Position numbers and translations under genes: made by a program. Positions 2,174 to 16,397 of a stretch of 64,000 nucleotides of DNA are shown here, piece by piece; position 1 is the first letter of the stretch, and each line of letters begins with the position of its first letter. Source of the DNA: an uncultured Chloroflexia bacterium (GTDB taxonomy: Bacteria > Chloroflexota > Limnocylindria > Limnocylindrales > CSP1-4); NCBI GenBank assembly GCA_963833225.1, contig CAWHXD010000019.1, positions 160,001-224,000 of the forward strand, written 5' to 3'. The notes under the pieces were generated by a model that was not told the DNA's origin, ran no database searches, and saw nothing but the letters and a program-made list of their open reading frames with translations.

Positions 2174-2746
2174 TCAGGTGCCGGGGTTCGGCTGCAGCGT
2201 GGAGCTGCCCAGTCCGGCACCCTCGGCCAGGATGTCCGCCTGGCGGCGTTCCTCGCAGATCGGGGCAACGGTCGCGTTCGACAGCATCCGCAAGGTCGCG
2301 GGCGGGACCGGGAACACGGCGGTCGGGGTGCCGGCAGAGGCCCACACGACCTGGAACCGCCCCAGGTCCGGGTCCATGATCACGCGCACCGTCCGTGGGT
2401 GGCCGATGGGCGGGATCCCGCCGATGGTGTAGCCGGTCAGGTCCCGTGCCTCGATCGCGGTGGCGCGGCGGACGTCACGCTCTCCGGTGACGGCAGCCAG
2501 GCGTGCGAGATCGACACGGTTTGGGCCGGACACCAGGCACAGGATCGGCTCGAGGGTCTCGTCCTCGGCAGGGGCGACGAAGATCAGCGACTTGACGATC
2601 TGGCCGAGCTCCGCACCGACGGCCGCAGCCGCTTCCTCGGCAGTGTGGGTGGACTCCGAGAAGGCGTGGACATCAAGGGCGACGCCCTTGCGCGCAGCGG
2701 CGTCGATCACCCGCTGGGTTGGCGTGGGCGTCGAGAGCTCAGGCAC
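2174..2746 (-). CDS. YbaK/EbsC family aminoacyl-tRNA deacylase
   Basis: THTAEEAA...QIVKSL...TGYTIGGIPPIGH motifs. Confidence 0.9.
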   Translation of the reverse strand: MPELSTPTPTQRVIDAAARKGVALDVHAFSESTHTAEEAAAAVGAELGQIVKSLIFVAPAEDETLEPILCLVSGPNRVDLARLAAVTGERDVRRATAIEARDLTGYTIGGIPPIGHPRTVRVIMDPDLGRFQVVWASAGTPTAVFPVPPATLRMLSNATVAPICEERRQADILAEGAGLGSSTLQPNPGT

Positions 2747-2810
2747 GATCCGAAGGGTACACGACGGGGGTTGTGAGCCGTGTGCCCGAGCGGCGAGTAC
2801 GATCCGGACG

Positions 2811-3518
2811 ATGCCTCACGCCGCGCCTCGCCAGCGCCATGTCCTCGTCGTCGCGGACGGCGACGTCCCGCCGCGCTCTGCCCTGGACCAGGCCTGGCCC
2901 GGCTGGGACGACGCCGTGACCGACGTGATCGCGGCCGACGGTGGTCTGGCGCGCGCCCAGGGCCTCGGCCTGTCCCCGGACGTCCTCGTCGGTGACCTGG
3001 ACTCCGTGGATCCCGCGGCCGCCCACGCGGCGGAGCGCGACGGGATCGAGATCCTGAGAGCCCCCGCGGACAAGGACGAGTCGGACACGGAGCTGGCGCT
3101 GCTCGAGGCGGTCCGGCGCGGCGCGACCCGGGTGACCGTGCTCGGCGCGCTTGGCGGACCGAGGCTGGACCACGCGCTGGCGAACCTCTGGTTGCTCGCC
3201 CACCCGGGCCTCGCGGGGGTCGAGACCACGCTCCTCGACGGGTCGACCCGGGCACGGCTCCTCACGGGTCCTGCCGTCCAGCGGCTGCCCGGCGAGGTGG
3301 GGGCAACCGTGTCGCTCCTGCCGATCGGCGGCGACGCGCACGGGATCACCACCAGCGGTTTCCACTACCCGCTCCACGGTGAGACGCTGCGCACCGGGCC
3401 CGCGCGCGGCCTGTCCAACGTCCGGACGGCGCCGGACGCGTCGGTCACCCTCCGGGAGGGCCGCCTCCTGGTCGTGGAGGTGACGGTCCCGAAGGTCCCG
3501 CTAGACTCCTCCCCATGA
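2811..3518 (+). CDS. thiN: Thiamine diphosphokinase
   Basis: IAADGG, VGDLDS, DKDESDTELA, GGPRLDH, GLSN motifs; ATG at 2811. Confidence 0.9.
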   Translation: MPHAAPRQRHVLVVADGDVPPRSALDQAWPGWDDAVTDVIAADGGLARAQGLGLSPDVLVGDLDSVDPAAAHAAERDGIEILRAPADKDESDTELALLEAVRRGATRVTVLGALGGPRLDHALANLWLLAHPGLAGVETTLLDGSTRARLLTGPAVQRLPGEVGATVSLLPIGGDAHGITTSGFHYPLHGETLRTGPARGLSNVRTAPDASVTLREGRLLVVEVTVPKVPLDSSP

Positions 3519-4000
3519 CGACCCTGCGCGCCGGCGACCCGGCACCCGATCTCGTGCTCCCCGATGAGCACGGCACCCTGCAGCGCCTGGCAGACCGCCA
3601 CGGCTCCTGGACCGTCGTCTACTTCTACCCGAAGGACGACACGCCCGGCTGCACCACCGAGGCCTGCGGCTTCCGCGACCTTGACGCCGATATCGCCGGG
3701 CTGGGCGCACGCGTGTGGGGGATCAGCCCCGATCACGCGGCGAGCCATGCGGCATTCCGCGCGAAGTTCGGCCTCCCGTTCACCCTGCTCAGCGACGAGG
3801 ACCATGCGGTCGCGGAGCGCTGGGGGGCATGGGGTGAGAAGACCAGCTACGGCAAGACGTCGGTCGGGATCCTGCGTTCGACGTTCCTCGTCGACCCCGA
3901 CGGCCGGATCGCCAGGGCGTGGCCCCGCGTCAGGACGGACGGGCACGCCGGGCAGGTCCTGGACGCCCTCCGCGCAGCCCTCGCCGGGCGTGACGCGTGA
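3515..4000 (+). CDS. bcp: Thioredoxin-dependent peroxiredoxin Bcp
   Basis: YFYPKDDTPGCTTEACGFRD motif. Confidence 0.95.
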   Translation: MTTLRAGDPAPDLVLPDEHGTLQRLADRHGSWTVVYFYPKDDTPGCTTEACGFRDLDADIAGLGARVWGISPDHAASHAAFRAKFGLPFTLLSDEDHAVAERWGAWGEKTSYGKTSVGILRSTFLVDPDGRIARAWPRVRTDGHAGQVLDALRAALAGRDA

Positions 4001-4024
4001 TCCGCGCGACGAGAAACGCGTAAC

Positions 4025-4066
4025 GAAAAAGGCTTCGCTCGTGGGGGGAGACGAGCGAAGCCTCAG
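4025..4066 (-). ncRNA. Candidate ~40-nt single-hairpin RNA with CUCCCCCC loop and U-tail
   Basis: Perfect 13-bp stem (4030-4042/4051-4063); U-run on the minus strand only; extended -10 TGCTAGATT at 4080-4072 just upstream. Confidence 0.45.
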
Positions 4067-4159
4067 CCCGCAATCTAGCACAAAGGACGGTGTCGTGGTC
4101 TCCGATTCGCAACCTTCCGCGGCATCGACGACCGACGCGGAAATCGAGGGAGGTCGATC

Positions 4160-4903
4160 GTGACGGACGCCACAGAACACGCACCGCACGCCTGGCGCCC
4201 GCCGCGTTTCATGGTGATCGTCGCGCACCCTGACGACGCCGACTTCGGGCCGGCCGCGACGGCGGCCCGCTGGATCGACGACGGATCCGAGGGGTGGCTG
4301 GTCTGCTGCACCAGCGGTGACGCGGGGGCCGACGACTGGCGGACCGACCCCATCGAGCTGGCAACCGTTCGCGAGGCCGAGCAGCGGTCGGCCGCCGAAG
4401 TGGTGGGCTATGCCGGCATCTCGTTCATCCACCAGCCGGACGGCGCCCTCGCCAACGATCTCGCGCTGCGCGAGCAGCTCGTGCGCCAGATCCGGACGTT
4501 CCGCCCGGACGCTGTCCTGGCCGTGGACCCGGAGACGCTGTTCTACTTGGACGGCGGCGTGAACCACGCCGACCACCGCACGTCGGGGCTCGCGGCAGTG
4601 GATGCGGTCTACCCGGCGGCGCGCAACCCGATGGCGTTCCCGTGGCTGGCCCGCGATGGCCTGGAGCCGTGGATGGTCCGCCGGCTGTACCTGTTCTGGT
4701 CGAACCACCCATCGGCGTGGATCGACGTGACCCCCACCCTGGAGCGCAAGATCGCGGCGCTCCGCGCGCATCCCAGCCAGCTCCGCCATCCCGAGGAGCT
4801 CGAGCCGAGGATCCGCGAGTGGGCGACGGAGGAGGGGGCCGTCATCGGCGTGGAGGCAGCCGAGGCGTTCCGGGTCATCGTCATCGAGGGCGATGTCGAC
4901 TGA
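4160..4903 (+). CDS. PIG-L family deacetylase
   Basis: AHPDD and NHADH motifs. Confidence 0.9.
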   Translation: MTDATEHAPHAWRPPRFMVIVAHPDDADFGPAATAARWIDDGSEGWLVCCTSGDAGADDWRTDPIELATVREAEQRSAAEVVGYAGISFIHQPDGALANDLALREQLVRQIRTFRPDAVLAVDPETLFYLDGGVNHADHRTSGLAAVDAVYPAARNPMAFPWLARDGLEPWMVRRLYLFWSNHPSAWIDVTPTLERKIAALRAHPSQLRHPEELEPRIREWATEEGAVIGVEAAEAFRVIVIEGDVD

Positions 4904-4912
4904 CGGGCGGAT

Positions 4913-6712
4913 CTACCTGGCCAGCAGGGCGGGCCGCACCCGACCCCAGGCGTTCCACAGGTCGGCAAGCTCCGCGGCGCGACCACCCAGCGCATCGACC
5001 ATCTGCCCGAGGGAAAGGTCCCCGGCGTGGTCCACGAGCCACTCGTCGGCCGCGACGACCGCCTGCTCGTACAACGTGCCGATCTGTGCCTCGTTCGGCC
5101 ACGTCCGGATCCGCATCCGGTCCAGTCCCGCGTAGCCCACCGCGAGCGACAGGTCGCGCGCCGGCGGTTGGCGACCGTCCGCAAACCCGCCGAGGCCGTC
5201 ATAGCGGTACCCGAGCGCCGACAGGGCGCCCACGATGTCGCGGGCCTCGCGGTGCTCGAACAGCCGCCAGAAGGGGTGGTCCTCGGGAAGGTCCAGGTAG
5301 CCGTCCTCGATGGCCCGACCGACGATCACGTCCACGAGACGCGAGATCCGGAGGTGCCACTCGCGTTCGGCCTCGGGTTCCCCCGCGGCGAGCGTGGCCA
5401 CCAGCAGCTCGCGCGTCTCGCGGTCGCCGCGGAGCAGGCGGGTCACGACGGGGAAGCCGGCCATGATCTCCGCAGGCGAGGGCTCGCGCTCAGCCTCAGG
5501 CAGGTCGGGATGCTCCACCGGCCAGACCTTGGCGAACGGGTGCGGCTCATCGGCGGGCGGCGGCGTCCTGCGGGCGAGCTCGTCGGCCTCCTCGCAGCTC
5601 GCGAGGTCCTGGCGTGCCTCGTGGCAGCCGCCGTCGGCGTTCTCGGACGCGATGCGGGCCGCGTCCGCCTGGGCCGACAGGCGCTCCAGGGCCGGCTGGG
5701 CGGCACGGAGCTCGGCAATGCCCTGGTCGGCGGCGCGACGGGCCTCGCGCACGGCCGCGTTGAGGTCGTTGATCTCGTCGAGCCACGCGCGCGCCGCGGC
5801 CTCCGTGTCGTCCGGGCCACCGGCCCGCGCGGTGGCGGTGCGGAACAGCGAGTGAAGACGTTCCTTCTCGGCGGCGACCCGGCGCGGGTCGGCCGTGGAC
5901 TCCGACGAGTCGACGCGTTCGCGCAGGACATCGTAGGCACGCTGCGCCTCGCGCAGCGCATCGGCGGCGGCATCGGCGGTGCCACGCGCCGCATCCGCGA
6001 ACGCGCAGCGTTCCTCGACCAGTCGGCGCTGGGTACCACACGGGTCCGTGTCCGGGACGGGCTTGCCAGGCGAGGGCGTGCCGGACGAGGGCGTGCCGGA
6101 CGAGGGTGTGCCGGAGGACCCGTCTGCCCGTCCCGCCGGTCCCGCGCCACGCCCGGTCCCGGCGTGCGGCGTGATGGGAGGGCGAACGCGCTCGGCCGAC
6201 GCCTGGGCCAGCGCAAGGCTGGTGAACGAGTCGTCGCGCGCCGGTCGGGCCGGCCGTTGCGACCGGGCGGCGAACGCCGTGGCCGCAACCGGCCTGAGCA
6301 CGGCGACGCCGACCCCGATCCCGGCGGCATCGGTGCGGTCGATCGAGCGGTCCATGGGCACCGCCACGGCCGTCTCGGGCAGGGTGACGGGGGCTGATGG
6401 AACGCGCGTTCTAGCCTGGATGGTTGCGACGCCGTCGGCCGTGGCCCGCGCGCCGGTATCGGGCTGGGCGTTGTCGCGCGGCGGCTGCGGTCGATCGGCG
6501 TCGGGCCAGCCGGACATGGGATCCGGGAGGTCGTCGCCGGACGGAACGGCGAGCGTCCGGGGGCGCCTGGCGGGGATCGCGTTCGGGGTGATCGTGAGCC
6601 GGACCTCGCGGCGCGCCGAGGACCGGACCCGCATCACCAGCGTGAGCGCCACGCCGACGGCGGCACCGAGCGCCAGGCCGACGGCGAGAAGGGCGGTCTC
6701 GGAGGTGGTCAC
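4913..6712 (-). CDS. Hypothetical membrane-anchored coiled-coil protein
   Basis: N-terminal TM helix, low-complexity linker, Ala/Glu/Arg coiled coil, globular C-terminal domain; start uncertain (6712 or 6727). Confidence 0.7.
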   Translation of the reverse strand: MTTSETALLAVGLALGAAVGVALTLVMRVRSSARREVRLTITPNAIPARRPRTLAVPSGDDLPDPMSGWPDADRPQPPRDNAQPDTGARATADGVATIQARTRVPSAPVTLPETAVAVPMDRSIDRTDAAGIGVGVAVLRPVAATAFAARSQRPARPARDDSFTSLALAQASAERVRPPITPHAGTGRGAGPAGRADGSSGTPSSGTPSSGTPSPGKPVPDTDPCGTQRRLVEERCAFADAARGTADAAADALREAQRAYDVLRERVDSSESTADPRRVAAEKERLHSLFRTATARAGGPDDTEAAARAWLDEINDLNAAVREARRAADQGIAELRAAQPALERLSAQADAARIASENADGGCHEARQDLASCEEADELARRTPPPADEPHPFAKVWPVEHPDLPEAEREPSPAEIMAGFPVVTRLLRGDRETRELLVATLAAGEPEAEREWHLRISRLVDVIVGRAIEDGYLDLPEDHPFWRLFEHREARDIVGALSALGYRYDGLGGFADGRQPPARDLSLAVGYAGLDRMRIRTWPNEAQIGTLYEQAVVAADEWLVDHAGDLSLGQMVDALGGRAAELADLWNAWGRVRPALLAR

Positions 6713-6803
6713 GACGCTCCCGTGCATCCCGAGCTTGGTGGGCGTCGGGCTGGCGCCAGCGTCAGCTGCGCCCGGGGGCGTCGTCAACTCGCGCGCGACC
6801 CTG

Positions 6804-6869
6804 ATTCGCGGGCGTGCCCGGGGCGATTCGCGGGCGTGTCCGGGGCGTGTCCGGGGCGTGGCCGGGGCG
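6804..6869. repeat. Six tandem 11-bp GC-rich units in a divergent intergenic region
   Basis: attcgcgggcg-tgcccggggcg-attcgcgggcg-tgtccggggcg-tgtccggggcg-tggccggggcg. Confidence 0.75.
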
Positions 6870-7104
6870 TGTCGACGCGCACGCGTGGGGCCGAGCAGCG
6901 CCTGGATTTCGGGCGCCTGCGGCACCCGGGATCGTGCCTTCATTGCCTGTCGATGGTCCATTGGACGGTCCAGACGCGCCAAATGGCCCCCTTTGCCATG
7001 CACGTCCGCTCGCGGCTTGGTACTCTCGCACGCGTCGGCGGCGTCCCCCCGCCGGGGTTTTCCCGTCGCCCAGCCCCGAGCCCAGCAAGAGGCCCGCTCG
7101 CTTC

Positions 7105-8937
7105 GTGACCCTCGACCAGTCCCAGGAGTTCCTCGTCCAGCCCGTGGACGCGTCCTGGCTCCAGTGCAACATCGAGTGCCAGGAGGCCTGTCCCGTCGGC
7201 ACCAACTGCCGGGGCTACCTCAACCTCGCCGCGGAAGGCCGCTTCGAGGAGGGCTACATCCTTGCCCGCGAGCCCAACCCGGTCGCGGCGATGTGCTCCT
7301 ATGTCTGCTCGGCCCCCTGCGAGCGTGCCTGCCGCCGCGGCGACATCGACCGCCCGCTGGCCATCCGGGCGATGAAGCGCTTCCTCGTCGAGTGGCACGA
7401 GGCCTCGGGCATCCCGGACACCATGCCGGCCATCACGTCCCGCGAGGAGCGGGTCGCCGTGATCGGCGCCGGCCCCGCGGGCCTTGCGGTGAGCCGCGAG
7501 CTCGCGACCCGCGGCTACCAGGTGACGGTGTTCGACAGCCTGCCCTTTGGCGGCGGCACGATGCTGATCGGTGTCCCGGCCTTCCGCCTGCCGCGCGAGG
7601 CGATCGAGATGGACGTCCGCCTTGTCGAGCGCCTGGGCGTCCGGTTCGTGTTCGACACCACCGTGGGCATCGACATCCCGTTCGCCGACCTCCAGCGCGA
7701 CTACGACGCGATCGCGATCACGGCCGGTGCCATGAACCCGGTCTACCTCGACGTGCCGGGCGCGGACCTCGACGGCGTGAAGTACGGCATCGACTTCATG
7801 AAGCTCGCGAACCTCGGCCAGGAGCTGTCGGTCGGCCAGAACGTGGTGGTCATCGGCGGTGGCTACACGGCCATGGACTGCTCGCGCACGAGCCTCCGCT
7901 ACGGTGCCGAGAACGTCACGATCGCCTACCGGCGGACGCGCTCCGAGCTGGTCGTGGACGAGGAGGAGCTGGGCGAGACGGAGCGCGAGGGCGTCAACCT
8001 CGAGTTCCTGGTCAGCCCGATGGAGCTCATTGGCGAGGACGGCAAGCTCACGGCGGTCCGGTTCATCCGCAACAAGCTGGGCGAGCCGGACGCCTCGGGT
8101 CGCCGCTCCCCGGTGCCGATCGAAGGCTCCGAGTTCACGGTCCCGGCCGACACGGTCATCCCGGCGGTGTCGCAGGCGGCGGACCTGTCGTTCCTGCCCG
8201 TGGACGCCAACTTCGAGGTTGGACGCGGGCGACTCAAGGTCGACCCGGCCACGTATGCGACCAACGTGCGCGGCGTGTTCGCGTGCGGTGACTTCGTGAC
8301 CGGCCCGACCACGCTGATCGAGTCGGCGGGTCACGGCAAGAAGGCTGCCTACGCGATCGACCGCTACCTCGCCGGCCGGACGGACGTGACGGTCACCCCC
8401 AACGTGAAGATCACGAGCTCCTGGCGCCACGAGATGCCGGAGCTCTACGACGTGATGCCGCGGCAGCACATCCCGATGGTGGAGCTGCCCTCGCGGATGC
8501 CGTCCACGGACCCGGCGGTCAACTTCTCCACGCCCGTTGAGCGCGGCTACGACACGACGGCGGCCGTGGCGGAGTCCACCCGCTGCCTGATGTGCAACTA
8601 CAACATCTGGTTCGACCCGTTCCGGTGCGTGCTGTGCGGCGCCTGCGCCGACGTGTGCCCCGAGGGGGTCATCCACATGGTGGACGTCAACCAGCTCAAG
8701 ACCGAGGGGCTGCTGCCCGAGGTCGAGGAAGCCTACGGCTGGGCGCAGGGCGCGGCCATGGTCCTCGACGAGGAGCGGTGCATCCGATGTGCGCTGTGCG
8801 TCAAGCGGTGCCCCTTCGATGCCATCACCATGGAGCGGTTCGAGCTCCAGGAGATCTCGAGCGACGGACGGCTCTACAAGGAGTCGTATCGTGACGCGCA
8901 ACTCGCCGGGACGGCCGGCGTGGCAGGAGGAGCGTAG
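7105..8937 (+). CDS. GltD/NfnB-like FAD/NAD(P)-dependent oxidoreductase with C-terminal 2[4Fe-4S] ferredoxin domain
   Basis: CQEACP...CSYVCSAPCERAC Fe-S motifs, GAGPAG (FAD), GGGYTAMD...YRR (NADP), RCLMC, CVLCGACADVCP, CIRCALCVKRCP; GTG start at 7105. Confidence 0.9.
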   Translation: MTLDQSQEFLVQPVDASWLQCNIECQEACPVGTNCRGYLNLAAEGRFEEGYILAREPNPVAAMCSYVCSAPCERACRRGDIDRPLAIRAMKRFLVEWHEASGIPDTMPAITSREERVAVIGAGPAGLAVSRELATRGYQVTVFDSLPFGGGTMLIGVPAFRLPREAIEMDVRLVERLGVRFVFDTTVGIDIPFADLQRDYDAIAITAGAMNPVYLDVPGADLDGVKYGIDFMKLANLGQELSVGQNVVVIGGGYTAMDCSRTSLRYGAENVTIAYRRTRSELVVDEEELGETEREGVNLEFLVSPMELIGEDGKLTAVRFIRNKLGEPDASGRRSPVPIEGSEFTVPADTVIPAVSQAADLSFLPVDANFEVGRGRLKVDPATYATNVRGVFACGDFVTGPTTLIESAGHGKKAAYAIDRYLAGRTDVTVTPNVKITSSWRHEMPELYDVMPRQHIPMVELPSRMPSTDPAVNFSTPVERGYDTTAAVAESTRCLMCNYNIWFDPFRCVLCGACADVCPEGVIHMVDVNQLKTEGLLPEVEEAYGWAQGAAMVLDEERCIRCALCVKRCPFDAITMERFELQEISSDGRLYKESYRDAQLAGTAGVAGGA

Positions 8938-9666
8938 GTGAGCTTCCTGGAGCGGGTCGACCAGAGCATCCGGCGAAGCCCGGTGTGGCGGTCGATCTTC
9001 CGCAACCCGTACCCGGACGACGAACGCAGCCGGGCATACGCGGTGATGAACAACGTGTTCCTGCACCTGCACCCGGTGCGGGTGCGGCAGCATGCGGTCA
9101 AGTTCGCCTATACGTTCTGCCTGGGCGGGCTGTCGTTCTTCCTGTTCCTCGTGCTCACCGTCACCGGCGTCTACCTGATGTTCTTCTACGTCCCGTCCGA
9201 TACGCAGGCGTACAGCAACATCCTCGACATCCAGTCACGGGTGACGTTCGGCCTGCTGACCCGCAACATCCACCGGTGGGCCGCCCACCTGATGGTGTTC
9301 TTCGTGTTCCTGCACATGATGCGGGTCTTCTACCACGGGGCCTACAAGCCGCCGCGCGAGTTCAACTGGGTCGTGGGCGTGGTCCTGCTGTTCCTCACGA
9401 TCATGCTGTCGTTCACGGGCTACCTCCTCCCGTGGGACCAGATCGCCTACTGGGCCATCACCATCGGCACCAACATGGGCGGCTACGCGCCGTTGTTCAA
9501 CACCCCCACCAAGCTGCTGCTCCTGGGCGGCATCGAGGTGGGCCAGAACACGCTGTTGCGGTTCTATGTGCTGCACATCATCGTCCTGCCACTCGTCGCC
9601 GCGATCTTCCTGGCCGTCCACTTCTGGCGGATCCGGAAGGATGGAGGGATCAGTGGGCCGCTCTGA
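8938..9666 (+). CDS. Cytochrome b6-type (N-terminal) subunit of a Rieske/cytb complex
   Basis: FCLGG (heme ci Cys), [40 protein letters not shown]. Confidence 0.95.
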
Positions 9667-9690
9667 TCGCCCGACCCTGGGGTCCTGCGA

Positions 9691-10308
9691 ATGACCGACA
9701 CCAAGGCGCCGAACGAGACGCGGGTCGTCCTGCCGGTGGACCCGACTCGCCGGACGGAGATCGACAAGCAGCGGGTGCCGATGTCGGCCCGCCCCTACCG
9801 CCTGCTGGCGCTGGTCAAGCAGGACGCCGTCGTGCGGGTCCAGAAGGAGCCGGACGACACGGTCATGACCTGGCCGCACCTGCTGGCCATCGAGTTCATG
9901 GCGGCAGCCCTGATGAGCGTGTTCCTGCTCCTGATGGGCCTGTTCATGAACGCGCCGCTCGAGGACCTGGCGAATGGCAACGTCACCCCGGCGGTGGCCA
10001 AGGCGCCCTGGTACTTCCTCGGCCTGCAGGAGCTGCTGGCCTACTTCCACCCGACCGTCGCGGGCGTCATGGTCCCGACCTTCGTGCTCGTCGGGGCGGC
10101 GCTGATCCCGTTCGTGGACCGCGGCAACATCCTCGCGGTGCGGCCATCCGAGCGGAAGACGGCCGTGGTGCTGTTCTCGCTGTTCGCGGGCCTCGGCCTG
10201 TTCCTCACCTTCGTCGGGATCTTCTTCCGGGGTCCCGGCTACTCCCTGGTCATCCCGTACCTCACGTTCTTCACGAACGGGGTACCCGGCCTTCATTTCG
10301 CCCTCTGA
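9691..10308 (+). CDS. Subunit IV (cytochrome b C-terminal part)
   Basis: TWPHLL, KAPWYFLGLQELL, three TM helices, PFVDR. Confidence 0.9.
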   Translation: MTDTKAPNETRVVLPVDPTRRTEIDKQRVPMSARPYRLLALVKQDAVVRVQKEPDDTVMTWPHLLAIEFMAAALMSVFLLLMGLFMNAPLEDLANGNVTPAVAKAPWYFLGLQELLAYFHPTVAGVMVPTFVLVGAALIPFVDRGNILAVRPSERKTAVVLFSLFAGLGLFLTFVGIFFRGPGYSLVIPYLTFFTNGVPGLHFAL

Positions 10309-10327
10309 TGCGAAGGAATCCGGAGTC

Positions 10328-11002
10328 ATGAGCAACTACCACGTCGAACCGGCAGACAAGCCCAAGGCGCTCACCAAGGAGGCCCTCAAGGCCGTCCGCC
10401 ACGAGCAGGTCCAGGGCGTCTCGCGCCGGGAGCTGCTGCGGGGCTCGCTGGCGGCGGGGCTCGGCCTGTGGTTGCTCGAGGTCTCGGCGGGGACCATCGG
10501 GTTCCTGTGGCCGAACCTCCAGGGCAAGTTCGGCGGCCTGGTGCGGATCGGCACCCTGGACGACGTCAAGTCCGCCAACTCGGCGCTCCCCATCGACGAG
10601 GGGTTCCCCGCCTACTACTCGTCCGCCAAGGCATTCGTGATCCTGGTCGACCCGTCCCAGCAGCGGTTCGTGCAGGGCGAGGACCCGACCGGCGATGGCA
10701 CCTCGGTCAACGTCCGCGCGCTCTACCAGCGCTGCCCGCATCTCGGCTGCAAGCCCAACCCCTGTCTCAAGAACTTCTGGCTGGAGTGCCCCTGCCACGG
10801 GTCTCGCTACGACCGGCTCGGGATCAAGGCCGCGGGGCAGGCGTACGGGCCCGCGCCGCGCAGCATGGACCGCTTCGGCGTGATCGTGGACGACTCCGGC
10901 GTGCTCACCATCGACACCGGCAAGCTCACCCTCGGCCCCCTGCCCGTCGCGGTCGGCCAGCCGGGGATCATCCCGCCACGGACCCCGACCGGGTGCATCT
11001 GA
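10328..11002 (+). CDS. Rieske [2Fe-2S] protein with Tat motif
   Basis: SRRELL, CPHLGC, CPCHGS, GPAPR. Confidence 0.95.
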   Translation: MSNYHVEPADKPKALTKEALKAVRHEQVQGVSRRELLRGSLAAGLGLWLLEVSAGTIGFLWPNLQGKFGGLVRIGTLDDVKSANSALPIDEGFPAYYSSAKAFVILVDPSQQRFVQGEDPTGDGTSVNVRALYQRCPHLGCKPNPCLKNFWLECPCHGSRYDRLGIKAAGQAYGPAPRSMDRFGVIVDDSGVLTIDTGKLTLGPLPVAVGQPGIIPPRTPTGCI

Positions 11003-11042
11003 TCTCGTTGCGACCCCACCCGACCGCCCACCGAGGAGACCG

Positions 11043-12122
11043 ATGACCGACCAGACCGGCCGCCCCCCCGAGGAGCGTCTGCCCGCGCCGCGGCCGTCGT
11101 CCGCGCCCGCGCCGGCCGACCGCTTCTCGGCGCCGCCGTCGGCCCGCCGCAACGACCTCACGCCCGAGCGGGCCGGCCGGATCGTCCGCCAGTCCGCGAA
11201 CGCGCGCTGGGTGGGCTTCCTGGCCGTGACCCTCGTGGGCCTGTTCGTGATCGGCTACTACTTCTACGAGCTGGGCCTGCCTGGCGGCCTCTCCGAGCCG
11301 CGCCTGGCGCAGGCCGCCGCCGAGCAGCAGGTCGTGGCGGTGGAGCGCGGCTACAACCTGTTCGAGGCGAACTGCGCCCAGTGCCACGGCACCAAGGGGG
11401 AGGGCGGCATCGGTCCCGTGCTCAACCGCCAGGACAAGCTGTTCGCGCACCTCAACCCCGACTACCTGCGCAACGTGCTCACCGCCGGTGGGCGCTACGT
11501 GTGCGGCAACGCCGACAGCGTCATGCCCGTGTGGTCGAACACCGGCAATCCGCCGGGACCGCTCAACTACAAGCAGATCGACGACCTGATCGCCTTCATC
11601 CGGGCCAAGAAGGGGACCGAGTACCGGGTGCTGGACCCGGCGCTCGCCGAGCCCACCATCGACCCGGTCACCCACAAGCCGGTGACGTTCGAGGGCTGGG
11701 TGGACCCGGCCTACCAGCCGGCACCCGGTGCCACGCCGTACCCTGCGTGCTGGGCAGACGAGTTCTCGAACCCGCAGCCGTCGAGCGCCCCGTCCTCTCC
11801 CGCAGCGTCGGGTGAGCCCGGCGCGTCGCCCGCCCCGGCAGGCGTCGTCGTCAAGGAGATCGCCAAGGGGATCCAGTTCGTGAACAAGGACCTCTCGGCG
11901 CCCGCCGACACGCCGTTCCAGATCGAGTTCGACAACCAGGACGTGGGCACCCCGCACAACATCGAGATCAAGGACGCCAGCGGTGCGGTCGTGTTCAAGG
12001 GCGAGATCTTCGCCGGCCCCGCCGTCAAGACCTACGACGTCCCGGCCCTGCCCGCGGGCACCTACCCCTTCGTGTGCACCGTGCACCCGAACATGATCGG
12101 CACCCTCACGGTGGGAGGCTGA
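11043..12122 (+). CDS. Membrane-anchored cytochrome c fused to a C-terminal cupredoxin domain
   Basis: TM helix, CAQCH, candidate axial Met (VMP), then PHNI...CTVHPNM type-1 copper ligands. Confidence 0.9.
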   Translation: MTDQTGRPPEERLPAPRPSSAPAPADRFSAPPSARRNDLTPERAGRIVRQSANARWVGFLAVTLVGLFVIGYYFYELGLPGGLSEPRLAQAAAEQQVVAVERGYNLFEANCAQCHGTKGEGGIGPVLNRQDKLFAHLNPDYLRNVLTAGGRYVCGNADSVMPVWSNTGNPPGPLNYKQIDDLIAFIRAKKGTEYRVLDPALAEPTIDPVTHKPVTFEGWVDPAYQPAPGATPYPACWADEFSNPQPSSAPSSPAASGEPGASPAPAGVVVKEIAKGIQFVNKDLSAPADTPFQIEFDNQDVGTPHNIEIKDASGAVVFKGEIFAGPAVKTYDVPALPAGTYPFVCTVHPNMIGTLTVGG

Positions 12123-12126
12123 CGCG

Positions 12127-13578
12127 ATGGCCCAGACCGCCCTCCCCTCCCCGCAGCACGTGACGGCCCGCCGTCGCACCCTGTTCGGCCTGCTTGACGC
12201 CGACGGCTGGAGCTGGGCTTTCGTCAAGTCGCTGTTCTGGTTCGTGCTGATCATCCTCATGCTCGGGTACATCCCGGACCGCGCGTACTACTTCACCGTC
12301 CAGCGGACGGTCGACGTGGGCATCCTCGCCTTGTCGCCGGTGAACCTCTGTCCGGCCGAGAACGGCGGGCTTCCGTGCCCCGCTCCGGCCGGCGCCACCC
12401 TCGCCTGGGAGTCGAGCCCGGCCGAGGTCAACCTGCCCGCGACCCGCACCGACGGCGCGGCCGGGATCATCGGCCAGACGATCCTGTTCGCCGGTGGCTC
12501 CAACGGCACGGCCGCGGTCGCGGACACGTACGTCACGCATCTCAACCAGGGTGACAACCTCAACGCCTGGGCCGCCGCGCCGGCGCTCCCCGAGGCGCGT
12601 GCCGACGCGGCCGGCGTCGTGCTTGGCAACAGCCTGTACGTGATCGGCGGCTACGGCCCGGACGGCCAGCCAACCAGCACGGTGTACAGCCTGACCGTCG
12701 CCAACGACGGCAGCCTTGGCGACTGGGTCACCGAGGATGCGCTCGCGCTTCCTGAGCCGCGTGCCGGTGCCGCCGCCGTGGCCGTCTCGGACGGCATCGT
12801 GCTGATGGGCGGGACGGCGACGGCCGATGCCGCCGGCGCCACGCGCAGCGTCTGGAAGGTCCAGCAGGACGCGACGGGCAAGCTTGGGACGTGGGCCGAG
12901 CAGACGCCGCTGTACGAGGAGAACGTCGACGGGTTCGCCGCCCATTTGGGCGACGTCATCTTCCTGGTGGGTGGTCGCAAGGCCGACGGCAGCGTCGTGT
13001 CGACGGTCCAGCAGGGCCTCGTCGGTGGCAAGACCGCCACCGCGGAGGACCCGAACGCGATCCTGGCGCTGTGGCGCGCGAGCGATCAGACCAACCTGCC
13101 GGGCCCGCGCACGGATCTCTCCGGCTTCACCGCCAATGGCGCCCTGTACGTGCAGGGCGGCTCCGACGGGGTGGGCCCGCGCGCCGAGACGCTGTGGGCG
13201 ACGCCGGATGCCGAGGGCGTGATCCCGGAGTGGCTCCACCTGGCCACGAGCGACCTTGGCACGGGCGTGGCAGGCGCCGCCGCCTTCGCGTCCGGCTCGC
13301 ACGCGTTCACGATCGGCGGCACCACCTCGAGCGGTCCGACGGCCGGCCTGGCGCGGGTCAACCTGGCCCCGCAGGAGCCGTACTTCCAGCTCGGCCTTCT
13401 TGGCGCGGTCGTCCCGGCGCTCAAGCTCGAGGGCGAGATCGGGCAGCAGATCGGGTACCTCAATGCGGCCGGCGCCGCGACCGTGGACTTCGTGATCCTG
13501 CTGCTGGTCGGCTGGGGGTTCGCGCACAAGGACCGGGTGCGGGCCTTCATTGCCAGCCGGAGGCGCGGCCGGGACTGA
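12127..13578 (+). CDS. Kelch-repeat membrane protein
   Basis: Repeated LP-x-x-R...(I/L)Y(V/L)xGG...W units; TM helices at both ends. Confidence 0.8.
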   Translation: MAQTALPSPQHVTARRRTLFGLLDADGWSWAFVKSLFWFVLIILMLGYIPDRAYYFTVQRTVDVGILALSPVNLCPAENGGLPCPAPAGATLAWESSPAEVNLPATRTDGAAGIIGQTILFAGGSNGTAAVADTYVTHLNQGDNLNAWAAAPALPEARADAAGVVLGNSLYVIGGYGPDGQPTSTVYSLTVANDGSLGDWVTEDALALPEPRAGAAAVAVSDGIVLMGGTATADAAGATRSVWKVQQDATGKLGTWAEQTPLYEENVDGFAAHLGDVIFLVGGRKADGSVVSTVQQGLVGGKTATAEDPNAILALWRASDQTNLPGPRTDLSGFTANGALYVQGGSDGVGPRAETLWATPDAEGVIPEWLHLATSDLGTGVAGAAAFASGSHAFTIGGTTSSGPTAGLARVNLAPQEPYFQLGLLGAVVPALKLEGEIGQQIGYLNAAGAATVDFVILLLVGWGFAHKDRVRAFIASRRRGRD

Positions 13579-13604
13579 TCAGCCGGGGCCGACGCCCCGC
13601 GGTG

Positions 13605-13974
13605 TCAGGGGGTGAGCTGCCCCTCGCCATCCTCGATCGGGCCGTGCTTCACCGGCAGCCCCATGCGCTGCCAGCCGTCGATTCCCCCGGCCACGTTCCC
13701 GACGTCCTCGTATCCCTGCTGGAGCAGGAAGCTGGTGACGCTGCTCGATCGGGACCCGGTCGCGCACAGCACCATCAGCGGCCGGTCCCTCGGGATGTCG
13801 GCGAGCCGGACCCCGATCTGGGACATCGGGACGAACAGCGAGCCCTCGACGCGCGCCTGGCGGAACTCGTCGAGCTCGCGCACATCGAGGACGAGCGGCC
13901 GGACGGGCGGGGTCCCTGCGGCGAATGTCGGCGTAGAGCGGGTCGAGGGCCGGGATGCCCATGGGCCGGTTCAT
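13605..13974 (-). CDS. Rhodanese-like domain protein (one frameshift near 13900)
   Basis: MNRPMGIP... frame joins ...LVLDVRELDEF...LCATGSRS...GGIDGW frame. Confidence 0.75.
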
Positions 13975-14402
13975 GCGCGGGGGATCCTCCGGATGACGGG
14001 GGCGGGGGCGATCGCGCCGAACGCCGGATCCGCGAGGCGAGCATCCACGTCGGCGAGCAGGGAGGGGACATCGACGCCCCAGGCGACGCCGGCGGGCCCC
14101 GCCAGGGCGAGGTGCTTCCGGGCGCCGGCGAGGTTCTTGGCGATGCCGGGGGGATTGCCGCGACCGGCATGGACATACGCCGCGGCGACCTTGATCAGCC
14201 CCTGGTGGAGCGCCCGCTCGGCGAGATCGGCGGTGCCCATCCAGGCCGGCTCAAGCGCCTCGTGGGCCTCGAACGGCTCGCCGGCGGCATACAGCGCGAG
14301 GCCGGTCTCGAAGGCCGCCCGGCGGGCAGCCTCGGGGAGCGGCCGGTACGCCTTGTCCCGATCGCCCTGGCGGATCAGCATCGGGCGGTTGACGGCGCCC
14401 AT
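13971..14402 (-). CDS. DUF309 domain protein
   Basis: GEPFEAHEALEPAW...QGLIKVAAAYVH...GN motif. Confidence 0.85.
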   Translation of the reverse strand: MGAVNRPMLIRQGDRDKAYRPLPEAARRAAFETGLALYAAGEPFEAHEALEPAWMGTADLAERALHQGLIKVAAAYVHAGRGNPPGIAKNLAGARKHLALAGPAGVAWGVDVPSLLADVDARLADPAFGAIAPAPVIRRIPRA

Positions 14403-14404
14403 CG

Positions 14405-14848
14405 TCAGGCGCTCGCCGCCCCGTGCGGAAGGGCCTCGAGGGGCTTGCGGCCGGCGTACCCCTCGTCGGTGCCGTGCCAGAACTCCACGCGGTCCTCGCC
14501 CAGTCGCCAGCAGAGCCAGACCTGGCGGCCACCGGCGAGGGCCGGGAAGTCGAGCAGCCCGGTGGGGATGTCGCGGAGCACGATGCCGCGCTCGTCAAGC
14601 CAGGCCACGTCCGCCTGCATCTGGTCCACGATGCCGCGGATCCGGAGCCGCAGCCGTCGCAGCTCGGGGTCATCGCCGGTGGGGACGGCCGCCTCCGCGA
14701 TGAGGTCATCGACCAGGTCACCCTCGCGCTGCCGGAAGGCGTCGCGCGCCTCCACGATCTCCGTGCGCTGGTCGCGCAGCCGGGTCACGACGACCGCGAG
14801 GTCGGGGACCAGGGCGTTGGCCTCGATGGGGCCGTAGAAGCGGGACAC
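14405..14848 (-). CDS. DUF2203 family protein
   Basis: EANALVP...RDIPTGLLDFP...VWLCWRLGE...WHGTDEGYAGRKP; GTG start at 14848. Confidence 0.85.
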   Translation of the reverse strand: MSRFYGPIEANALVPDLAVVVTRLRDQRTEIVEARDAFRQREGDLVDDLIAEAAVPTGDDPELRRLRLRIRGIVDQMQADVAWLDERGIVLRDIPTGLLDFPALAGGRQVWLCWRLGEDRVEFWHGTDEGYAGRKPLEALPHGAASA

Positions 14849-15011
14849 CTCCCGATTGTAGCCGCGACCACATGCTTGGGCTCCCGCCGGACCTGGTTCG
14901 CCCACCGGGACGATGGCCCTGACCCGATGTGACCGGGTGCGAGTAACCCGTTGGGGGTATTGATCCGCAGGCAATTCCGGGGCACTCTGCCCCGTACCAC
15001 CTGGAGGCCCC

Positions 15012-16397
15012 GTGTCCATCGCCGTTTCTCGCCGCGCTCCGGCGCCTGTCGCGGACGCTCGCTCCCGAGCGCTGCCGGTGCTCGCCGCCGCTCTCGCGCT
15101 CCTCGTGGCCCTGTCTGCTGTGCTCGCCGCGGCGCCGGCAGCGGCCCTGGCCGGCACGACGCTTGCCGCCCGCTGTGACGTGAACATCCGGGTCAAGCCG
15201 TCGACCAAGTCGCGGATCATTCGCAAGCTGCCGGCCGGTGCGAAGGTGATCGCCGTCGCCAAGGTCTCGGGCAGTCGCTGGAAGGCGAAGTGCCATGGCA
15301 CGGCATACGCCGGCTCGCACTGGTGGAAGATCAGCTCGGTCAACGGCAGGAGCGTCAAGTCCCGCTACGGCGTGAAGTACGTGTACGCGGCGACGAAGCT
15401 GTTCAAGTCGGTCGTGACGCCCGTCGCTCGCGAGGCTGCCTGTTCGGGCGTCGCCCTGCGGACCAGCGCCAAGGTGGGCGGCACGCTCAAGACGCGGATC
15501 GACGAGGGCGTGGATGTCACCACGATCGCCGCGGTGAGCGGCGGCTCCTGGTCGGCCTCGTGTGCCGGCTCCACATCGGGCTCGAAGTGGTACCGCATCA
15601 CGGCGGTCAACGGGAAGAGCGTCGCATCGCTGTATGGGGTGAAGTACCTCTACGGGGCCAAGGGCCTGTTCCGCGCCCCCACCCCCACTCCCACCCCGAC
15701 CCCCACCCCGACACCGACCCCCACCCCGACACCGACCCCCACCCCGACACCCAGCCCTCCGTCCCCCTACGCCGAGGGCATCGACGTCAGCCACTGGCAG
15801 GGCACGATCGACTGGGCCGAGGTCGCGGGTGCCGGCAAGCGGTTCGCGTACATGAAGGCATCCCAGGACATCGACTACATCGACCCCACCTACGCGACGA
15901 ACCGTGCCCAGGCGAAGGCGAACGGGTTGTACGTCGGGGCCTACCACTTCGCCGAGCCCGGAACCGCGGCCGGCGACGCCGTGGCGGAGGCGGACCACTT
16001 CGTGGACACCGCCCAGCCGAAGTCGGGCGAGCTGCTTCCCGTCCTTGATCTCGAGCAGACGGGCGGCCTGGACAGGCCGACGCTCAAGGCCTGGGTCAAG
16101 GCCTTCCTGCAGCGCGTCTACGACCGGACGGGGATCCGGGCCGCCATCTACGTGTCACCCAGCTTCTGGTCCAACAAGATGGGCAACACGGCCTGGTTCG
16201 CCGCCAACGGATACCCGGTTCTGTGGATCGCGCACTGGACGACGGCCGACGCCCCCACGCTCCCGGCCAGCAACTGGGGCGGCTACGGCTGGTCGTTCTG
16301 GCAGTACACCTCAAGCGGCACCGTCGCCGGCATCGGCGGGCGCGTCGACCTCGACCGGTATCGGAGCCACGACCTGACGCCCGCCCTCATCCCGTAG
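15012..16397 (+). CDS. Secreted GH25 lysozyme with two N-terminal SH3-like repeats and a PT linker
   Basis: Signal peptide, GIDVSHWQG, GAYHFA, PVLDLE, WQYTS, VDLD; (PT)n linker near 15680-15760. Confidence 0.9.
   Translation: MSIAVSRRAPAPVADARSRALPVLAAALALLVALSAVLAAAPAAALAGTTLAARCDVNIRVKPSTKSRIIRKLPAGAKVIAVAKVSGSRWKAKCHGTAYAGSHWWKISSVNGRSVKSRYGVKYVYAATKLFKSVVTPVAREAACSGVALRTSAKVGGTLKTRIDEGVDVTTIAAVSGGSWSASCAGSTSGSKWYRITAVNGKSVASLYGVKYLYGAKGLFRAPTPTPTPTPTPTPTPTPTPTPTPTPSPPSPYAEGIDVSHWQGTIDWAEVAGAGKRFAYMKASQDIDYIDPTYATNRAQAKANGLYVGAYHFAEPGTAAGDAVAEADHFVDTAQPKSGELLPVLDLEQTGGLDRPTLKAWVKAFLQRVYDRTGIRAAIYVSPSFWSNKMGNTAWFAANGYPVLWIAHWTTADAPTLPASNWGGYGWSFWQYTSSGTVAGIGGRVDLDRYRSHDLTPALIP

Follow-up and report, generated by a model that had tools for sequence, protein, structure and literature searches.

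A Conserved Operon in Limnocylindria (Chloroflexota) Links an NfnB/GltD-Like Flavoprotein Gene to Genes of a Rieske/Cytochrome b6 Complex

Results

Gene Content and Coding Evidence

The stretch of DNA analyzed here (the window) comprises 64,000 nucleotides of an uncultured Chloroflexia bacterium from soil, of the class Limnocylindria and the order Limnocylindrales (assembly GCA_963833225.1, contig CAWHXD010000019.1, positions 160,001 to 224,000); the assembly amounts to 3.9 Mb and is 86% complete. At positions 7105-13578 of the window, six open reading frames (ORFs) were confirmed on the plus strand. They encode a flavo-iron-sulfur protein (the oxidoreductase), cytochrome b6, subunit IV, a Rieske protein, a cytochrome c-cupredoxin and a Kelch protein. 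These six genes form a conserved, translationally coupled operon. The G+C content of the window is 70-75%, and long ORFs are therefore plentiful. The third-position GC of the six ORFs is 0.91-0.96, as compared with approximately 0.71 overall. Thus, these frames truly code for proteins and did not arise by chance from the high GC content of the genome. Furthermore, all six have family matches in the Pfam and NCBIfam searches.

The stop codon of the oxidoreductase gene (TAG, 8935-8937) abuts the start codon of the cytochrome b6 gene (GTG, 8938-8940), as had been described in an earlier note made from the sequence alone. The ribosome-binding site, AGGAGGAG (8925-8932), sits within the 3′ end of the oxidoreductase gene, and the coupling signal, which was read directly, extends over 8925-8940 of the plus strand. 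In the ORF calls of the relatives, the end of the oxidoreductase frame also falls at the b6 start. From b6 onward, the intergenic gaps are 24, 19, 40, and 4 nt. The GTG start at position 7105 agrees with the N-termini of the relatives, the matches of which start at query residues 1-6.

A scan of positions 4800-15200 detected no promoter-like site and two terminator-like sites, no more than in shuffled sequences, and is uninformative at this GC content. Contigs from RNA libraries spanned the 8937/8938 junction in two of the four runs, with two records each, which is weak evidence for one transcript. The word shares of these contigs were small (0.06-0.15). Since most of the pieces were 85-95% alike, they stem from relatives. 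Positions 6700-6993 were without cover in three of the four runs, and this was not counted as a transcript start. Nothing in these analyses points to a separately transcribed oxidoreductase gene.

The Flavoprotein

The first gene (7105-8937, plus strand) encodes a GltD/NfnB-like NAD(P)(H)-FAD iron-sulfur flavoprotein of 610 amino acids, as judged from Pfam, NCBIfam, and PDB matches. Pfam places a two-cluster Fer4_20 domain at residues 19-101 (E = 1.8e-15) and a Pyr_redox_2 domain with two glycine-rich dinucleotide folds at residues 116-408 (E = 1.8e-27). After a linker, a C-terminal 2×[4Fe-4S] ferredoxin domain follows, with two Fer4 motifs at residues 501-579. FAD and NADP motifs, N-terminal Fe-S clusters, and a C-terminal 2[4Fe-4S] domain had been noticed before, and these Pfam domains confirm them. 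The two-cluster domain together with the folds for FAD and NAD(P)H is the combination that marks the NfnB/GltD family. Since neither a signal peptide nor a membrane helix is present, the protein is read as cytoplasmic. No regulatory domain was detected in it by the Pfam search.

The cysteine ligands C25, C29, C68, C72, C76, C494, C497, C508, C511, C514, C518, C559, C562, C565, and C569 do not vary among 39 homologues linked to cytochrome b, and the glycines of the dinucleotide folds (G121, G123, G126, G251, and G253) are invariant in the flavoprotein homologues. In addition, Y275-R276-R277 is conserved with the proteins of anammox-layout clusters (see below); we take this motif to be NADPH-specific.

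NCBIfam gave PRK12771 ("NAD(P)-binding protein") as the top match, at 419.5 bits and thus under the cutoff of 516. The best solved relatives are Nfn-type proteins, namely 9n5u_A "NfnA" (E = 4.9e-108), 9bov_A, 8oh5_C, and 4ylf_B of T. maritima (E = 2e-86). Thus, the relationship to NfnB that had been assumed in advance holds. With the NfnB/GltD family and the Bfu-type NfnABC (4ylf_B, 5jca_L, 2vdc_G, and 9bov_A/9bp5), the window protein shares the N-terminal two-cluster domain and the FAD/NADPH folds (E = 1e-64 to 1e-108). In contrast to these systems, the window operon has no NfnA, GltB, or NuoF-like partner, and the presumed partner is a membrane cytochrome. No gene for an NfnA partner (FAD, [2Fe-2S]) was found in or beside the operon. 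Homology to NfnB/GltD alone does not imply flavin-based bifurcation.

The Membrane Core and the Outer-Side Proteins

Cytochrome b6 (242 amino acids; 8938-9666, plus strand; Pfam Cytochrome_B, E = 1.5e-45) possesses the four haem histidines H112, H126, H213, and H228 and keeps FC61LGG, the CxGG motif of haem cn. Its N-terminal extension bears His43, which is invariant in 39 of 39 cytochromes b from loci with an adjacent oxidoreductase gene. Solved b6 chains match the protein (E = 3.4e-52) and align only from residue 59. Subunit IV (205 amino acids; 9691-10308, plus strand; Pfam Cytochrom_B_C, E = 1.2e-6) has three hydrophobic helices, by inspection, and a cytoplasmic N-terminus of approximately 60 residues. 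Its Qo-site motif is APWY in place of PEWY, and A105, P106, W107, and Y108 are invariant in 21 sequences. The core is therefore a four-helix cytochrome b like b6 with a separate subunit IV and the CxGG motif of haem cn.

The Rieske [2Fe-2S] protein (224 amino acids; 10328-11002, plus strand; Pfam Rieske, E = 1.4e-7) carries a twin-arginine leader (SRRELLRG). In its boxes, CPHLGC...CPCHGSRY, the Ser and Tyr residues are both present; these have been linked to a raised or high potential (PMC12954380). Here and below, statements that cite PMC12954380, PMC5600118, or PMC5877670 draw on parts of these papers.

On the NCBIfam model of ExtP-type b6 (NF040969), the window b6 scored 298.6, over the cutoff of 290, and subunit IV weakly matched ExtQ. 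In these respects the window proteins resemble ExtOPQ of Geobacter, which consists of a Rieske protein, a cytochrome b, and a membrane protein (PMC5877670). However, the Geobacter ext cluster includes multihaem cytochromes and a porin (PMC5877670), and this context is missing at the window. Furthermore, in the part of PMC5877670 used here, no NAD(P) flavoprotein is described in the ext cluster. An ExtP function was thus rejected despite the score; the name reflects a b6-type sequence and not the function.

The fifth gene (11043-12122, plus strand) encodes a monohaem cytochrome c (CAQCH) that has a membrane anchor and is fused to a cupredoxin domain with type-1 copper (Pfam Cytochrom_C and Cupredoxin_1), with the copper ligands His...Cys-x2-His-x2-Met read from the translation. 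This protein is presumed to be the electron acceptor on the outer side, and its gene is conserved 3′ of the Rieske gene in Limnocylindria loci. The sixth gene (12127-13578, plus strand), which starts 4 nt past the cytochrome c gene, encodes a Kelch β-propeller protein of 483 amino acids (Pfam Kelch) that has one hydrophobic helix at either terminus and a basic tail. An outward-facing propeller is predicted, and the protein is possibly an accessory subunit or an assembly factor. Kelch was the sixth gene in eight order-level loci and in three of three long loci from small genomes; it was not found in five loci with 52% identity (L039-L043). These Pfam matches bear out the order of the four genes downstream of cytochrome b that the earlier note had given.

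Genes on the opposite strand flank the operon on both sides, the ORF at 4913-7003 (minus strand) upstream and a rhodanese gene at 13605-13883 (minus strand) downstream, and both flanks are conserved in relatives. The flanking genes, which include DUF309 and GH25 lysozyme genes beyond the rhodanese gene, are unrelated to the operon. The upstream ORF is divergent from the operon and encodes 696 amino acids; its third-position GC of 0.87 is coding-like, it has no Pfam match, and it is weakly conserved (33-54%) at the same position in relatives. A peroxiredoxin (AhpC/TSA) gene at 3515-4000 (plus strand) lies in the conserved upstream neighborhood. Another peroxiredoxin gene follows directly after a solitary oxidoreductase homologue in a Verrucomicrobia metagenome-assembled genome (MAG) (L098:9608-10216). 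Both placements may be coincidence.

Retention and Loss of the Operon in Chloroflexota

Oxidoreductases with 79-86% identity occur in contigs titled Chloroflexota, Candidatus Limnocylindria, Limnocylindrales, and Limnocylindrus, and the flavoprotein is at least 80% identical across the order, including genomes of 1.1 Mb. The b6 gene lies directly downstream of the oxidoreductase gene in all 19 same-genus loci. It was likewise found downstream in 10 of 10 further loci of the window's family, in 4 of 4 loci of a sister family (genomes of 1.0-1.4 Mb), where three of three long loci possess all six genes, and in all three loci checked from two additional families of the class (47-52% identity). 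Thus, the synteny survey detected the oxidoreductase-b6 adjacency in every Limnocylindria locus checked, and non-conservation next to cytochrome b, which would have spoken against the earlier note, was not observed in the relatives.

Among 401 Chloroflexota genomes sampled, oxidoreductase matches were found by family of the class in 16 of 23, 4 of 4, 16 of 16, and 2 of 2 genomes. With E ≤ 1e-130, 80 of the 401 genomes (one unpublished genome included) had a match; this number is not an operon count, since it admits solitary homologues of 41-44% identity, and for the same reason the value was rejected as a phylum-wide threshold for orthologues. In other classes of Chloroflexota these homologues are solitary, with no cytochrome b nearby in eight of the nine loci checked.

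The seven genomes of the window's family without an oxidoreductase match belong to two sister genera. In five of five searched genomes of these genera lacking the oxidoreductase, no strong cytochrome b was detected (best 36 bits, as compared with 153-156 in carrier genomes). Thus, the flavoprotein and the b6 complex are kept and lost together. Cytochrome bd was present in both of the genomes tested among these five.

Distribution Beyond Chloroflexota

We surveyed the best 80 loci of oxidoreductase relatives in contigs representing one genome per species, with a b6 gene at most 3 kb downstream on the same strand as the criterion of adjacency. The b6 gene was adjacent in 43 of the 80 loci. All 43 are among the 58 matches that reach the C-terminal ferredoxin domain, and none is among the 22 shorter ones. 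Two of the 15 full-length loci without an adjacent b6 gene end at a contig edge. By record title, the 43 carriers comprise 16 Chloroflexota, 16 members of Acidobacteriota groups (13 labelled Acidobacteriota, and Chloracidobacterium, Candidatus Angelobacter, and Bryobacterales), 2 Verrucomicrobia, and nine singles (Victivallales, Planctomycetales, Candidatus Abyssobacteria, Zixiibacteriota, Calditrichaceae, Nitrospirae, Waddliaceae, Ignavibacteriota, and an Actinomycetes MAG). Accordingly, adjacency occurs in 11 differently labelled groups outside Chloroflexota within these best 80 loci. The order oxidoreductase-b6-IV-Rieske was found in Limnocylindria and the Actinomycetes MAG. In most non-Chloroflexota carriers, the genes run oxidoreductase-Rieske-b-IV, and fusion of b to IV is frequent.

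On quick maximum-likelihood protein trees, adjacency was strongly clustered, with 4 changes on a tree of 85 rows and 7 changes on a tree of 86 rows, from which 7 near-duplicate rows and 3 long own-genome paralogues had been removed and to which 11 rows had been added. When adjacency was shuffled, approximately 29 changes were required, and none of 500 shuffles was as low as observed. With support 98, the Limnocylindria oxidoreductases fall into one group with two homologues from the PVC group, the Kustd1483-like proteins, and solitary homologues from Chloroflexota.

Fusion of b6 and subunit IV into a single ORF (420-520 amino acids) was seen in many loci of Acidobacteriota and Verrucomicrobia (L047, L050, L052, L058, L062, and others). 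Among the fusions that were aligned, most were without the Cys of CxGG, and His43 was kept. They agree with the fusion trend reported in PMC5600118. In a Kiritimatiellales MAG, an oxidoreductase homologue gene (L076:755-2341) overlaps a gene for a NIR_SIR sulfite/nitrite reductase haemoprotein (2338-4359) by 4 nt, and this overlap suggests that the same flavoprotein module may serve other acceptors.

Comparison with Anammox and b6f Complexes

In Kuenenia, Kuste4569-4574 and Kustd1480-1485 are b6f-like complexes with a putative NAD(P) oxidoreductase and were proposed to make NAD(P)H (PMC12954380, PMC5600118). Thus, the premise of the earlier note that anammox Rieske/cytochrome b complexes have NAD(P) oxidoreductase subunits holds. 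The Rieske potentials are +303 and +335 mV, and in AlphaFold3 models an extra haem b is held by His43 (Kuste4571) or His62 (Kustd1481) of both monomers (PMC12954380). All subunits of the Kuenenia complexes co-migrate, according to PMC12954380, which cites its reference 9.

For comparison at the sequence level, anammox-layout loci were taken from Planctomycetota genomes chosen for paired hydrazine-synthase-like ORFs (approximately 820-830 amino acids) and were recognized by layout and residue numbers. HZS_alpha (PF18582) was rejected as an anammox marker because it is unspecific and matches many planctomycete proteins and the Bacteroides control. Two cluster types were found, Rieske-oxidoreductase-b-IV-six-haem-eight-haem and Rieske-b-oxidoreductase-IV-eight-haem. 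The window proteins are 54-55% (cytochrome b) and 40-41% (oxidoreductase) identical to theirs. The histidine of the N-x-(F/W)-L-H motif in the anammox-layout cytochrome b is residue 43 in the first type and residue 62 in the second (by count and alignment), and it aligns with the window His43.

A gene for a GltD/NfnB-like Fe-S flavoprotein inside a Rieske/cytochrome b cluster is thus common to the window and the Kuenenia-layout clusters. Both also have b6 split from subunit IV, the CxGG motif, the aligned N-terminal histidine, and the Rieske Ser (and Tyr). Moreover, the window oxidoreductase finds the same solved relatives, 9bov/9bp5 and 5t5i, that served as templates in PMC12954380. In contrast, the window gene order is oxidoreductase-b6-IV-Rieske, and its subunit IV has three helices instead of five. 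The outer side of the window complex consists of one CxxCH with a cupredoxin and a Kelch protein, whereas hexa- and octahaem cytochromes and an HAO-like protein are found in Kuenenia, and the anammox-layout loci hold ORFs with 6 and 8 CxxCH motifs. Furthermore, the host of the window operon is an aerobe with a haem-copper oxidase, and the operon b6 is the sole cytochrome b in relatives.

The pairing of such genes is already known. Cytochrome b subfamily G of Dibrova et al. co-occurs with NAD(P)-binding Fe-S proteins, with proximity "in many other cases" (PMC5600118). It is the taxonomically most diverse subfamily; Ktedonobacteria and Nitrospinae are among the groups named, and Limnocylindria is not named in the part of the text used here (PMC5600118). 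The window b6 resembles subfamily G, with its mostly short CxGG cytochromes b, mixed taxonomy, large Cys-rich NAD(P)-binding partners, and b6-IV fusions (PMC5600118), a likeness in described traits as opposed to a tree placement against the reference DAMO_0768. The window operon belongs with the anammox-type Rieske/cytochrome b complexes and probably with subfamily G. It is less new than had been supposed, since the pairing is in PMC5600118, and what it adds is a new Limnocylindria member. Among the papers searched, we found none on this operon in Limnocylindria, and no flavoprotein subunit is described in the parts used of the Nitrospina and Ignavibacterium genome papers.

A flavoprotein on the n-side of b6f is also known from photosynthesis, where ferredoxin-NADP reductase presumably delivers electrons to the site of quinone reduction (Zhang et al. 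2001, cited in PMC5600118). The chloroplast and cyanobacterial complexes are like the window system in having a b6-type core with haem cn and an n-side flavoprotein. Unlike ferredoxin-NADP reductase, the window flavoprotein is of an unrelated family, possesses four Fe-S clusters of its own, and is encoded in the operon; in addition, the His43 extension of the window b6 has no counterpart in solved b6 chains.

Respiratory Context

Respiratory genes were searched in five genomes, namely one closed same-genus genome (3.6 Mb) and four small genomes; Limnocylindrus-like genomes are approximately 1.1 Mb. The operon b6 is the only PF00033 cytochrome b in all five. NuoD, PntB, and one haem-copper oxidase were also detected in each of them. 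Neither NrfD, a marker of alternative complex III, nor cytochrome bd gave a match in the two small genomes tested (G025 and G028), and the closed same-genus genome has matches to both.

MenD passes the cutoff in the window's genus, and the match of the window genome itself has internal stops. In the small genomes MenD was not above the cutoff, and the futalosine marker PF02621 gave no match in the five genomes searched. G025 and G028 (91-93% complete, 1.2-1.4 Mb), which are without MenD above the cutoff or PF02621, yet keep complex I, the b6 complex, and the oxidase.

Elsewhere in the window genome, two near-duplicate cytochrome b genes of 358 amino acids (C7:175729-176805 and C18:10428-11504) lie beside cytochrome c biogenesis-like ORFs, and one of 475 amino acids (C17:177460-178887) lies beside COX1/COX2-like ORFs. 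These three extra genes, against one cytochrome b gene in the closed same-genus genome, could reflect strain variation or contamination (3% estimated).

In the complex I operon of the closed same-genus genome (G006:C1:1104000-1122000), an ORF of 908 amino acids (6288-9014, minus strand) lies between NuoF and NuoJ and occupies the place expected for NuoG/NuoI. Similar ORFs are found near NuoD in three small genomes (G025, G027, and G028). In this ORF, a NuoG-like 2Fe-2S domain occurs together with a part similar to GltD/NfnB flavoproteins and with two 4Fe-4S motifs, and the domain order resembles the long Nfn-type PDB matches of the window flavoprotein. Complex I of the Limnocylindria lineage may thus carry an NADPH module, too.

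Discussion

Proposed Electron Path

From gene content and conserved residues, we infer that the product of the operon is a complex III of the b6f type, a menaquinol:cytochrome c/cupredoxin oxidoreductase, to which an NAD(P)(H) flavoprotein is attached on the cytoplasmic side. The flavoprotein arm on complex III is supported by the conserved adjacency, the co-loss, the CxGG motif, the invariant His43, and the haem-copper oxidase in relatives. In the earlier note, an aerobe outside the anammox bacteria was proposed to have a complex III whose NAD(P)H arm is cytoplasmic, and the same observations support this; the binding of the arm, on which that proposal also depends, we infer. A complex prediction with partial chains only (a b6 dimer, two copies of subunit IV residues 1-100, and oxidoreductase residues 430-610; score 0.11, mark 0.32) speaks neither for nor against binding.

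The flavoprotein would dock on the cytoplasmic face of the b6 dimer. Electrons would pass between NAD(P)(H), FAD, the two N-terminal [4Fe-4S] clusters, the two C-terminal [4Fe-4S] clusters, the His43 haem, and haem cn/bn. The extra haem held by His43 between the two b6 monomers, which was modelled for Kuenenia (PMC12954380), is assumed by analogy for the window complex. Haem cn/bn at the quinone-reduction site would then be the end of the flavoprotein wire. In the input direction, NAD(P)H would reduce menaquinone at the n-side site, as is thought for ferredoxin-NADP reductase on chloroplast b6f, while in the core the usual Q cycle would continue toward the cytochrome c-cupredoxin and on to the haem-copper oxidase. 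Where the complex is the sole complex III, it is the only route from quinol to the oxidase, and the core must therefore carry the bulk respiratory flux by the normal Q cycle.

Direction of Electron Flow and Alternative Explanations

Electron transfer from NAD(P)H to menaquinone is downhill (approximately −320 and −74 mV, respectively). GltD and dihydropyrimidine dehydrogenase, which are characterized members of the family, feed electrons from NADPH. Since the core must carry the bulk flux where it is the only route to the oxidase, since the step is downhill, and since a near relative overlaps a sulfite/nitrite reductase gene in a manner resembling a donor role, we tentatively take NAD(P)H to be the electron source at the n-side, in preference to a quinol-driven reduction of NAD(P)+, as a possible direction that is held with less than even confidence. 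Several points weigh against this reading. PMC12954380 proposes the opposite direction for the homologous Kuenenia complexes and holds that energy would be lost by an input of NAD(P)H where proton-pumping NADH dehydrogenases exist. NuoD and PntB were indeed found in five of five genomes tested, and PntB is a separate link between the NADH and NADPH pools. The Ser and Tyr of the Rieske protein are a high-potential signature, as in Kuste4569, and fit the opposite direction. The b-adjacent oxidoreductases do not form one clean clade on the trees. Moreover, the window genome itself has three more cytochrome b genes, and the operon may therefore have a specialized role there.

The opposite direction, a bifurcation of the Kartal type, is somewhat unlikely in our estimation. 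Menaquinol would be oxidized at Qo, with one electron going to the Rieske protein and the cytochrome c-cupredoxin and the other reaching NAD(P)+ via the b haems and then the extra haem and Fe-S clusters. Besides the energy argument and the Rieske box II residues, the publication of this scheme for homologous Kuenenia complexes, with their Rieske potentials and AlphaFold3 models, the identities of the window proteins to the Kuenenia-layout proteins, and the conserved His43 all speak for it. However, the operon b6 is the sole cytochrome b in five genomes, two of which, the small ones tested, gave no match to NrfD or cytochrome bd, and obligatory recycling of NAD(P)H through complex I would be at or beyond the available energy, since by an estimate from standard potentials it would consume roughly the energy of the quinol-to-cytochrome c span. 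The CxGG motif of haem cn, part of the b6f quinone-reduction site, is retained, and PntB would already give a route to NADPH; both would fit this direction less well.

The remaining explanations assign the flavoprotein no main-line flux or no place on the complex. It would be improbable, in our judgment, that the arm is an overflow valve or redox sensor of an ordinary complex III, which would swap electrons with the n-side haems upon over-reduction or over-oxidation of the quinone pool, and would limit radical formation or balance the NADP pool with little net flux in normal growth. Such a role would suit streamlined aerobes in which the arm-bearing complex is the only complex III and which retain complex I and transhydrogenase, so that neither net direction looks indispensable, and the peroxiredoxin gene in the conserved neighborhood would fit it, unless this is coincidence. 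Nevertheless, a five-cofactor protein of 610 residues that stays at least 80% identical across the order, even in 1.1-Mb genomes, suggests a main-line function, and no regulatory domain was seen by Pfam. Still less probable is a separate soluble enzyme that is co-transcribed with complex III without binding to it, for example, an NADPH-dependent reductase for another acceptor. The 15 of 58 full-length loci in which homologues stand alone or beside other genes (two at a contig end), the lack of b-adjacency in eight of nine loci checked in other Chloroflexota classes, and the several gains or losses of adjacency needed on the tree are in line with this explanation. Against it, adjacency recurs in many differently labelled groups and in two gene orders, the oxidoreductase is lost together with cytochrome b, His43 is invariant in the context tested, that of the oxidoreductase-adjacent loci, and subunit co-migration was reported for Kuenenia (PMC12954380).

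It is conceivable, at a very low probability, that an NADP-linked complex III and the GltD-like flavoprotein of complex I form an NADPH-centered chain, in which the low-potential electron would pass to NAD(P)+ and on to complex I (a "long Q loop"). If true, this would take the place of the site of quinone reduction, and streamlined aerobes of oligotrophic habitats would gain more protons per electron.

Implications

Complex III is taught as a closed quinol-to-cytochrome c machine. The operon adds a member and constraints to a known class and not a new principle. The class is widespread, and the operon reaches common soil and freshwater aerobes of Limnocylindria, Acidobacteriota, and Verrucomicrobiota. 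The status as the sole complex III and the invariant His43 are concrete handles for experiments. Since the b complex of Limnocylindrus-like bacteria is the only one they have, this lineage could settle the question of direction in the anammox complexes, provided that a strain or a heterologous system can be had. If complex III is hard-wired to the NAD(P) pool, the modelling of electron flow, proton yield, and NADPH supply in the carriers would change.

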